From Escherichia coli (GTDB lineage Bacteria; Pseudomonadota; Gammaproteobacteria; Enterobacterales; Enterobacteriaceae): a stretch of DNA of 443 nucleotides. Below are positions 1-443 of this stretch, one piece after another (positions within the stretch are counted from its first letter, which is position 1; every line of letters starts with the position of its first letter). The notes below the pieces were generated by a model. The model was given only the letters and a program-made list of their open reading frames with translations. It searched no databases and was not told the DNA's origin. A program made the translations under genes and the position numbers. The stretch is taken from NCBI RefSeq assembly GCF_003334385.1, contig NZ_QOWN01000180.1, one strand, 5' to 3'.

Positions 1-245
1 ATGCCGCTACACTTTAGCCAGCCCATGTTTTCCACCGGGGAATGGGCTGACGGTATCCATAAAGTGACAAACCTTTTCAACAACTGCCACATTGAACGGC
101 ACGGGTGATTTCGGATTATTGTCTCATGAAGCGCCTGCCACAACCGTTCGACATGATTCACCCACGGCGAGTAAACTGGCTGATAAATCATCCTGAACTT
201 CGGATCAATATCCGGCACTTCATTCTCTGATATCTCCGACCCGCA
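1..245 (-). pseudogene. IS630/Tc1-mariner-like (DDE_3-type) transposase, 5'-truncated C-terminal remnant; open frame runs off the window at position 1
   Basis: Minus-strand translation from 245 down to 1 is open for about 81 codons: [81 protein letters not shown]. The motif YSP-x-V-N-H-V-E-x-x-W has the same spacing as the IS630-family YSPxLNPIExxW motif that carries the catalytic Glu, and is followed by the usual basic/hydrophobic tail. An in-frame TAA (plus-strand 246-248) lies only about 32 codons upstream of that Glu, so the rest of the catalytic domain is absent. First in-frame ATG is at 192-194 with no good Shine-Dalgarno. Family call is from memory of motifs, not a search. Confidence 0.5.
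19..49. repeat. Inverted repeat with 8-bp arms (cagcccat / atgggctg) and a 15-nt spacer
   Basis: Read directly: 19-26 cagcccat is the reverse complement of 42-49 atgggctg; spacer 27-41 is gttttccaccgggga. It lies inside the minus-strand transposase remnant. No U/T run follows on either strand, so it is not an intrinsic terminator. Confidence 0.25.
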
Positions 246-250
246 TTAAT

Positions 251-370
251 CTGAAAGAAATAGAAATTCACTGGTGTGAAGTGCTACGTCTGGCGACCTC
301 AATAAAACAGGGAACAGTGACAGCATCCCTGATGCTGAGAAAACTTGCCAATTACCCCAAACAAAAGTAA
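251..370 (+). pseudogene. Tn3-family transposase (TnpA) internal fragment, truncated at both ends
   Basis: Plus-strand frame (codons at 251, 254, ...) reads [39 protein letters not shown] then stop TAA at 368-370. This resembles the conserved C-terminal-region block of Tn3-family TnpA, recalled as roughly HWDD-LLRLA-S-K-GTV-AS-LL-KL-AYPRQNGLA. The frame is open back to 197 but has no start codon or ribosome-binding site, and it stops where intact TnpA would continue. No Tn3-type 38-bp terminal inverted repeat is present. Confidence 0.7.
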
Positions 371-391
371 GCGTACAGCCTGAACCGTCTG

Positions 392-404
392 GTCAGAATC
401 TGAC
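392..404. repeat. 13-bp perfect palindrome gtcaga-a-tctgac
   Basis: Read directly: 392-397 gtcaga is the reverse complement of 399-404 tctgac, around a single central A at 398. The loop is too short for a stable hairpin, so if functional it is more likely a dimeric protein-binding site. Function is unknown. Confidence 0.3.
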
Positions 405-443
405 GAATTAGACAAAGTGGTGTCCACCAAATAAGTAGTGGGA

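Follow-up and report, generated by a model that had tools for sequence, protein, structure and literature searches.

A Tn3-Family tnpA Fragment That Stops at the Left Terminus of an IS66-Family Element in an Escherichia coli Mobile-Element Mosaic

Composition of the window

The window, i.e., the whole stretch of 443 nt of DNA that was analysed, is a mosaic of three mobile-element pieces. They are listed below together with the smaller features that lie at their borders; the evidence on which each assignment stands is given in brackets.

1-203, minus strand: C-terminal fragment of an IS630-family transposase gene, a pseudogene (match to NF033545, PGAP labels).
201-203, no strand: CGG microhomology at the novel joint between IS630 and tnpA (comparison with IS630 and tnpA copies).
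204-366, plus strand: internal fragment of a Tn3-family tnpA, 54 codons, 163 bp (NF033527, PF01526, comparison with a Shigella sonnei plasmid).
299-442, minus strand: spurious chimeric open frame (no family match; crosses an element junction).
359-366, no strand: target octamer AAACAAAA, left copy of an 8-bp target-site duplication (L006 against the uninterrupted L003).
367-388, plus strand: left inverted repeat (IRL) of an IS66-family, ISEc22-like element, GTAAGCGTACAGCCTGAACCGT (pairing of IRL with IRR, 34 flanks).
368-370, plus strand: TAA stop of the TnpA-like frame, formed by bases 2-4 of the IRL (direct reading and comparison with the uninterrupted site).
389-443, plus strand: 5' leader of the IS66 element, between the IRL and the element's own accessory gene tnpA (identical to L004 3023-3077).

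The records to which the window was compared include the EAEC-type plasmid pF8704-2_3 (L001), an ETEC plasmid (L002), the S. sonnei plasmid CP022460.1 (L003), a chromosomal IS copy of E. coli E110019 inserted in fhuE (L004), and the E. coli RMDEC364 plasmid NZ_JBLWMF010000004.1 (L006). In PLSDB and among 5426 complete E. coli genomes, no sequence matched the window over 80% or more of its length. The window recurs with 100% identity in the E. coli draft-assembly loci L042, L044, L045, and L046, and it differs by one mismatch from L008, L043, and L047; the draft assemblies, to which the neighbouring chaperone protein led, include GCA_012649405.1 and GCA_002245075.1 among those with the exact window, and exact matches of the neighbouring proteins carry E. 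coli protein names in NCBI. A promoter scan returned a single weak promoter-like site at 148-177, which is within the expectation from shuffled sequence, and a terminator scan of the window found none. Function is not expected of any of the three pieces.

The first piece, read on the minus strand, matches the IS630 model NF033545 at positions 248-290 of 299 (E = 5.8e-12), and PGAP labels matching sequence either "IS630 family transposase" or partial transposase. The model is not matched over its full length, and what the window holds is a frameshifted remnant, with a run of four T at about 75-78 in place of the five T of the ETEC copy L002, a difference of 1 nt. The four-T run splits the C-terminal frame of IS630 in two, of which one reads RSMWQLLKRF... 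and the other ends in ...VCHFMDTVSPFPGGKHGLAKV and a stop.

IS630 copies (L002, and a second copy in L042) read ...CTTCGG/GTTTGC across the point at which this piece gives way to tnpA, while tnpA copies (L001, L003, L006) read ...AAAGCGG followed by ATCAATATCC, which starts ATCAAT, and the window reads ...CTTCGG followed by ATCAATATCC. By these alignments the passage from IS630 to tnpA at 203/204 is a true novel joint, with only CGG common to both sides. Neither PLSDB nor the 5426 complete E. coli genomes nor the GTDB species-representative genomes contain it, and it turned up only in draft E. coli assemblies and metagenome contigs (four, exact search). On its 5' side the tnpA fragment of the window is shorter than that of L001 and L006, and the 5' boundary in L006 adjoins an IS3-family element. 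It was also considered whether both inverted IS630 pieces of this locus end at the same coordinate, which would mark a defined element end; this was rejected because the other copy continues as IS630 past the switch.

The second piece carries the frame around which the original prediction was built. The +2 frame stops at the TAA at 368-370 and ends in YPKQK-stop, as had been read at first, and its 56-residue translation matches the NCBIfam Tn3 transposase model NF033527 at positions 776-828 of 954 (E = 1.3e-15) with 56.5 bits, below the full-length cut-off of 500 bits, as only 53 of the 954 positions are present. The same translation matches the Pfam family DDE_Tnp_Tn3 (PF01526) at positions 214-266 of 389 (E = 2.8e-13), and these significant matches assign the fragment to a Tn3-family transposase gene. 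The nearest intact relative retrieved is the 1012-aa TnpA of the Citrobacter freundii plasmid pE51_001, whose tnpA shares 86% DNA identity with the fragment and, counted by eye, 47 of 54 residues over the span 788-841. This protein extends for 171 residues beyond the Q of YPKQ, which agrees with the earlier expectation that intact relatives run on for well over 100 residues.

The window does not encode a complete Tn3 transposase (about 1000 aa, catalytic domain intact), as only residues 788-841 of 1012 are left. Missing from the fragment are about 787 residues on the N-terminal and 171 on the C-terminal side, where 123 of the 389 positions of the Pfam DDE domain are also lost. The glutamate of the catalytic DDE triad in Tn3 transposases, which we take to sit in the LNKGE motif, would lie downstream of the break, the motif being found at residue 877 of the C. 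freundii relative. The tnpA piece is thus a gene remnant, not a functional member of the family.

Window 204-366 is 98.8% identical in nucleotides to the tnpA pseudogene of S. sonnei CP022460.1. Compared with the sister copies in L001, L003, and L006, the window has T for C at 269, which turns HWREV into HWCEV, and A for G at 351, which turns ASYPKQ into ANYPKQ. Both changes are non-synonymous and consistent with pseudogene drift.

The break at 366/367 and the terminus of the IS66-family element

Both breakpoints of the mosaic were placed by a three-way alignment of the window with L001 and L002. L001 has window 201-443 in common, and L002 matches 1-203 and then again from exactly 367, at GTAAGCG. 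The second break therefore falls exactly between 366 and 367, at the outer end of an IS66 terminal repeat, which bears out and sharpens the original prediction of a breakpoint at about 365-370 in preference to a point nonsense mutation. The last lysine codon of the frame, AAG, is a hybrid, AA being supplied by tnpA and G by the IS, and the stop TAA falls within the GTAAGCG of the terminal repeat. The junction between tnpA and the IRL occurs in 3 of the 5426 complete E. coli genomes, where the annotation each time gives a partial transposase of the Tn3 family.

A nonsense or frameshift mutation alone, in an otherwise continuous tnpA, would explain that the frame does end in one in-frame TAA, and it explains nothing else. 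No TnpA sequence follows 366 in any of the three forward frames, so that the frame-shifted continuation downstream of 370, the one result named beforehand as fatal to a breakpoint, was looked for and is absent. The true continuation of tnpA, TGGGTTGGCTAAAGC, is missing from the window; of the five loci searched, L003 alone has it, and 367-443 is instead identical to an IS66 end. Such a mutation is refuted by the uninterrupted site in L003, described below, and it retains practically no probability.

The third piece is that IS66 end. Window 367-443 is identical at 77 of 77 positions to the left end of the chromosomal copy in E. coli E110019 (L004), counted from the first base of the element. 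The transposase of L004 is named "IS66-like element ISEc22 family" by PGAP, and the name ISEc22 as it is used here rests on the PGAP labels of copies that are 77/77 identical to the window. The stretch 371-443, which could not be assigned at first, belongs to an IS end and consists of the IS66 left repeat and the leader upstream of the IS tnpA. According to PGAP, the CDS of this accessory gene starts at position 3093 of L004, i.e., at IS position 93, which puts its ATG 16 nt past the window end.

The position of the terminus follows from the flanks of other copies. All 34 distinct upstream flanks, which were taken from E. coli, E. albertii, Klebsiella, and the approximately 20-copy strain Escherichia sp. 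MOD1-EC7003, diverge exactly at the G of GTAAGCG, and therefore the element starts at window position 367. An IS3-family end at TGAACCG (382), which was the first guess, was rejected because all comparisons put the terminus at 367 and because the downstream genes are of the IS66 type.

The inverted repeats of the IS66 family are 20-30 bp long and start with GTAAGCG (PMC11946415), and insertion of its members produces direct repeats of 8 bp (PMC11946415; PMC6778807). A terminal repeat that starts with GTAAGCG is present at window 367-388; in L006 this IRL, GTAAGCGTACAGCCTGAACCGT, pairs with the IRR ACGGTTCTTGCTGCACGCTTAC over 22 nt with 86% complementarity, the two lying 2398 nt apart. The 8-bp duplication is found in the sister locus L006, and none is visible in the lineage of the window, in which the element is truncated or recombined. 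The gene order tnpA-tnpB-tnpC, the last encoding the DDE transposase, is found outside the window in L008, where the ORFs downstream of the window match TnpA (NF047595), TnpB (NF033819), and the transposase (NF033517, E = 1.3e-137); IS66 tnpA and tnpB genes also lie downstream of the match in L001.

About 22 contig ends of the draft assembly of Escherichia sp. MOD1-EC7003 (L014-L039) stop in an ISEc22-type IRL, and the coverage of the IS contig is about 20 times the typical value (2245 versus approximately 110), which indicates a large recent expansion of ISEc22-type elements in this strain.

The frame on the minus strand, described at first as lying at 302-442, open to the window end and antisense to the TnpA fragment and doubted for its composition, deserved that doubt. 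The ORF list of the window gives it 43 aa from a TTG at 430, whereas in the full contig it extends over 67 codons from stop to stop, and it lies on the strand opposite to that of the tnpA fragment, the IRL, and the IS leader. A separate gene or a structured RNA, residing in 371-443 or in this frame in its initial length of 47 codons, would be compatible with a frame that stays open to the window end; however, an Rfam scan of the window on both strands gave nothing at E ≤ 1, the ORF has no NCBIfam protein-family match, its 67 codons cross two unrelated elements, and a known IS has its conserved leader here. Hardly any weight can be given to this alternative. Because the frame spans the junction of unrelated elements, it cannot predate the insertion, and it is a chimeric artefact.

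Uninterrupted and occupied sites and the history of the junction

Two plasmids carry the same tnpA with and without the element. In S. sonnei CP022460.1 (L003), tnpA is uninterrupted at this place, CCCCAAACAAAA being followed directly by TGGGTTGGCTAAAGC, the frame reads on, and AAACAAAA is present as a single copy. In the RMDEC364 plasmid (L006), the junction of the window is followed by the complete element with tnpA, tnpB, and tnpC, by an IRR that ends in ...GCACGCTTAC, by a second AAACAAAA, by the remainder of the Tn3-family tnpA, and by a Tn3-type terminal repeat, in this order. The octamer AAACAAAA thus flanks both ends of the element (6035-6042 and 8485-8492), and removal in silico of the IS and of one octamer yields a single open frame up to the tnpA stop. 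The arrangement in L006 is what a simple transposition of an IS66-family element into tnpA at AAACAAAA leaves behind. The breakpoint, the identities of the three pieces, the uninterrupted site, and the target duplication of the sister plasmid are all read directly from these sequences. That the octamer forms part of the element ends was considered as well, and it is contradicted by its single copy in the uninterrupted site.

Further along this tnpA, about 450 bp in the downstream direction, L003 contains a second and different IS66-family element, with an IRL that starts GTAAGCGTCGTCTCAGCC... and a duplication AAACAACC at 5606-5613 and 8066-8073, which shares AAACAA with the target in the window. 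At this second insertion the GTAAGCG of the IS likewise supplies the stop of the tnpA frame.

The insertion of an ISEc22-type IS66 element into tnpA at AAACAAAA is almost certainly the explanation of the frame stop. An element of this type would have inserted itself into a Tn3-family tnpA, in the 3' third of the gene, with AAACAAAA as its target, and would thereby have brought the IRL GTAAGCGTACAGCCTGAACCGT against codon 841 of tnpA. By chance the TAA inside GTAAGCG falls into the tnpA frame and produces YPKQK-stop, and 367-443 are the left repeat and the untranslated leader that precede tnpA-tnpB-tnpC of the IS. Later rearrangements would then have fused the IS630 fragment at 203/204 to the tnpA fragment on its 5' side through the 3-bp microhomology, removed the 3' part of tnpA, and, in the lineage identical to the window, reduced the IS66 copy to a 547-bp stub of its left end.

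We infer that the junction of the window descends from the same insertion event as that of L006, and likewise the order of the later rearrangements; for the insertion in the lineage of the window the argument runs through the junction common to L006, because the lineage itself lacks the target duplication and the remainder of tnpA. In L042 and L044-L046 the IS66 copy is the 547-bp left-end stub, cut within tnpB (L042 14475-15021), which keeps the IRL and the accessory tnpA and lacks the transposase. L008, L043, and L047 carry a complete element of about 2442 bp (L008 1443-3884, minus strand), and its right flank is a fragment of an IS91-family transposase (TTTTGTGG...) with no matching octamer. 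The element in L008 looks like a hybrid, with its left 267 bp 98.9% identical to one copy and the remainder 97% identical to another. Homologous recombination between IS66 copies yields mismatched flanks (PMC6778807), and the composition of the element in L008 points to such recombination as having also acted in this lineage group.

The missing right-hand duplication is also what speaks for another origin of the joint at 366/367, namely illegitimate recombination or a deletion that ended at the IS66 terminus, or an adjacent deletion mediated by the IS; for the last of these, the other IS66-family insertion, some 450 bp further downstream within the S. sonnei tnpA, could in principle provide the seed. 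This downstream element, however, differs in its IRL and is flanked by a duplication of its own, and L006 displays the identical junction as a complete insertion, together with the 8-bp duplication and the tnpA remainder. A deletional origin is therefore very improbable, if less so than a point mutation, and transposition into tnpA at AAACAAAA is the reading kept in what follows.

Meaning, plasmid setting, and comparison with known systems

The stop of the TnpA-like frame is now fully explained by known elements, and the locus is known biology, ordinary mobile-element debris on an E. coli plasmid. Nested IS insertions in transposon remnants are commonplace on IncF virulence plasmids. The annotation that is due is that of a Tn3-family tnpA pseudogene fragment, interrupted where the left end of an ISEc22-like element of the IS66 family begins, and the labels to avoid are truncated gene of unknown cause and new ORF; past annotation, the finding has little importance. 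The junctions 203/204 and 366/367 can nevertheless serve as lineage markers for E. coli virulence-type plasmids, as the joint of tnpA with IS66 occurs in 3 of 5426 complete genomes and that of IS630 with tnpA in 0 of 5426.

Two further observations concern the target of the element and the surroundings of the window. In the 34 left flanks, most of which come from one genome (MOD1-EC7003) and were taken as raw counts that include no background control, G is found at -8 in 16, a pyrimidine at -5 in 29, and a purine at -4 in 30 of the 34, and C never occurs at -3. The target in the window, AAACAAAA, fits this weak, roughly palindromic octamer pattern. Independent IS66-family insertions into tnpA number two, about 450 bp apart, at AAACAAAA and AAACAACC.

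Directly upstream of window position 1 lie genes for a chaperone (247 aa), an usher (812 aa), and a fimbrial protein (186 aa). This cluster occupies L042 10001-13919, which corresponds to L008 8358-4443 on the minus strand, and in L042 it is bracketed by inverted IS630 pieces (9611-9835 and 14088-14311); a gene for an AraC-family regulator is located about 3.5 kb upstream of it. Neither PLSDB nor the set of 5426 complete E. coli genomes contains DNA close to that of the cluster, and among sequences translated from PLSDB plasmids nothing exceeds 33.5% identity to the usher. The exact proteins are found on 64-211 contigs each, under generic E. coli fimbrial names, and there is no obvious major-pilin gene upstream of the chaperone. 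The cluster may be an uncharacterised plasmid adhesin locus. A wider proposal would combine a weak palindromic target preference of ISEc22-type elements, approximately G-W-W-Y/R-W-N-N, with tnpA as a recurrent target and with the upstream chaperone-usher cluster as an uncharacterised plasmid-borne adhesin locus; as a whole it is speculative and probably does not hold.

Each piece of the mosaic has counterparts among known systems. Members of the Tn3 family have a TnpA of about 1000 aa, a serine resolvase, and 38-bp inverted repeats. The fragment in the window fits the Tn3 transposase models, the related loci L003 and L007 have a resolvase gene in divergent orientation, and L006 has a terminal repeat that reads GGGGTCAGTTTGGATCTCGAAAATTATTGTACGTTAAGG on the reverse complement and ends in the motif ACGTTAAG, which we presume to belong to the Tn3 inverted repeat. 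The window differs in that only 54 codons are left, cut on both sides and with substitutions relative to the sister copies.

ISEc22 and its relatives in the IS66 family (IS66, IS679, ISEc8) resemble the element described here in the GTAAGCG start, the 22-bp IRL and IRR, the 8-bp duplication, and the order tnpA-tnpB-tnpC. In contrast to these, only the first 77 bp of the element are in the window, the copy of its own lineage is a 547-bp stub, and the copy of the sister lineage is a recombinant of two IS66 copies that lacks matching flanks.

Finally, the locus recalls the nested IS "graveyards" of ETEC, EAEC, and Shigella virulence plasmids, which are built from the same IS630, IS66, IS3, IS91, and IS1 pieces and in which, on related IncF plasmids, these pieces adjoin the virulence loci pet, senB, virK, and capU. 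What sets the window apart from them is the joint of IS630 with tnpA at 203/204, which neither PLSDB nor the 5426 complete E. coli genomes contain.
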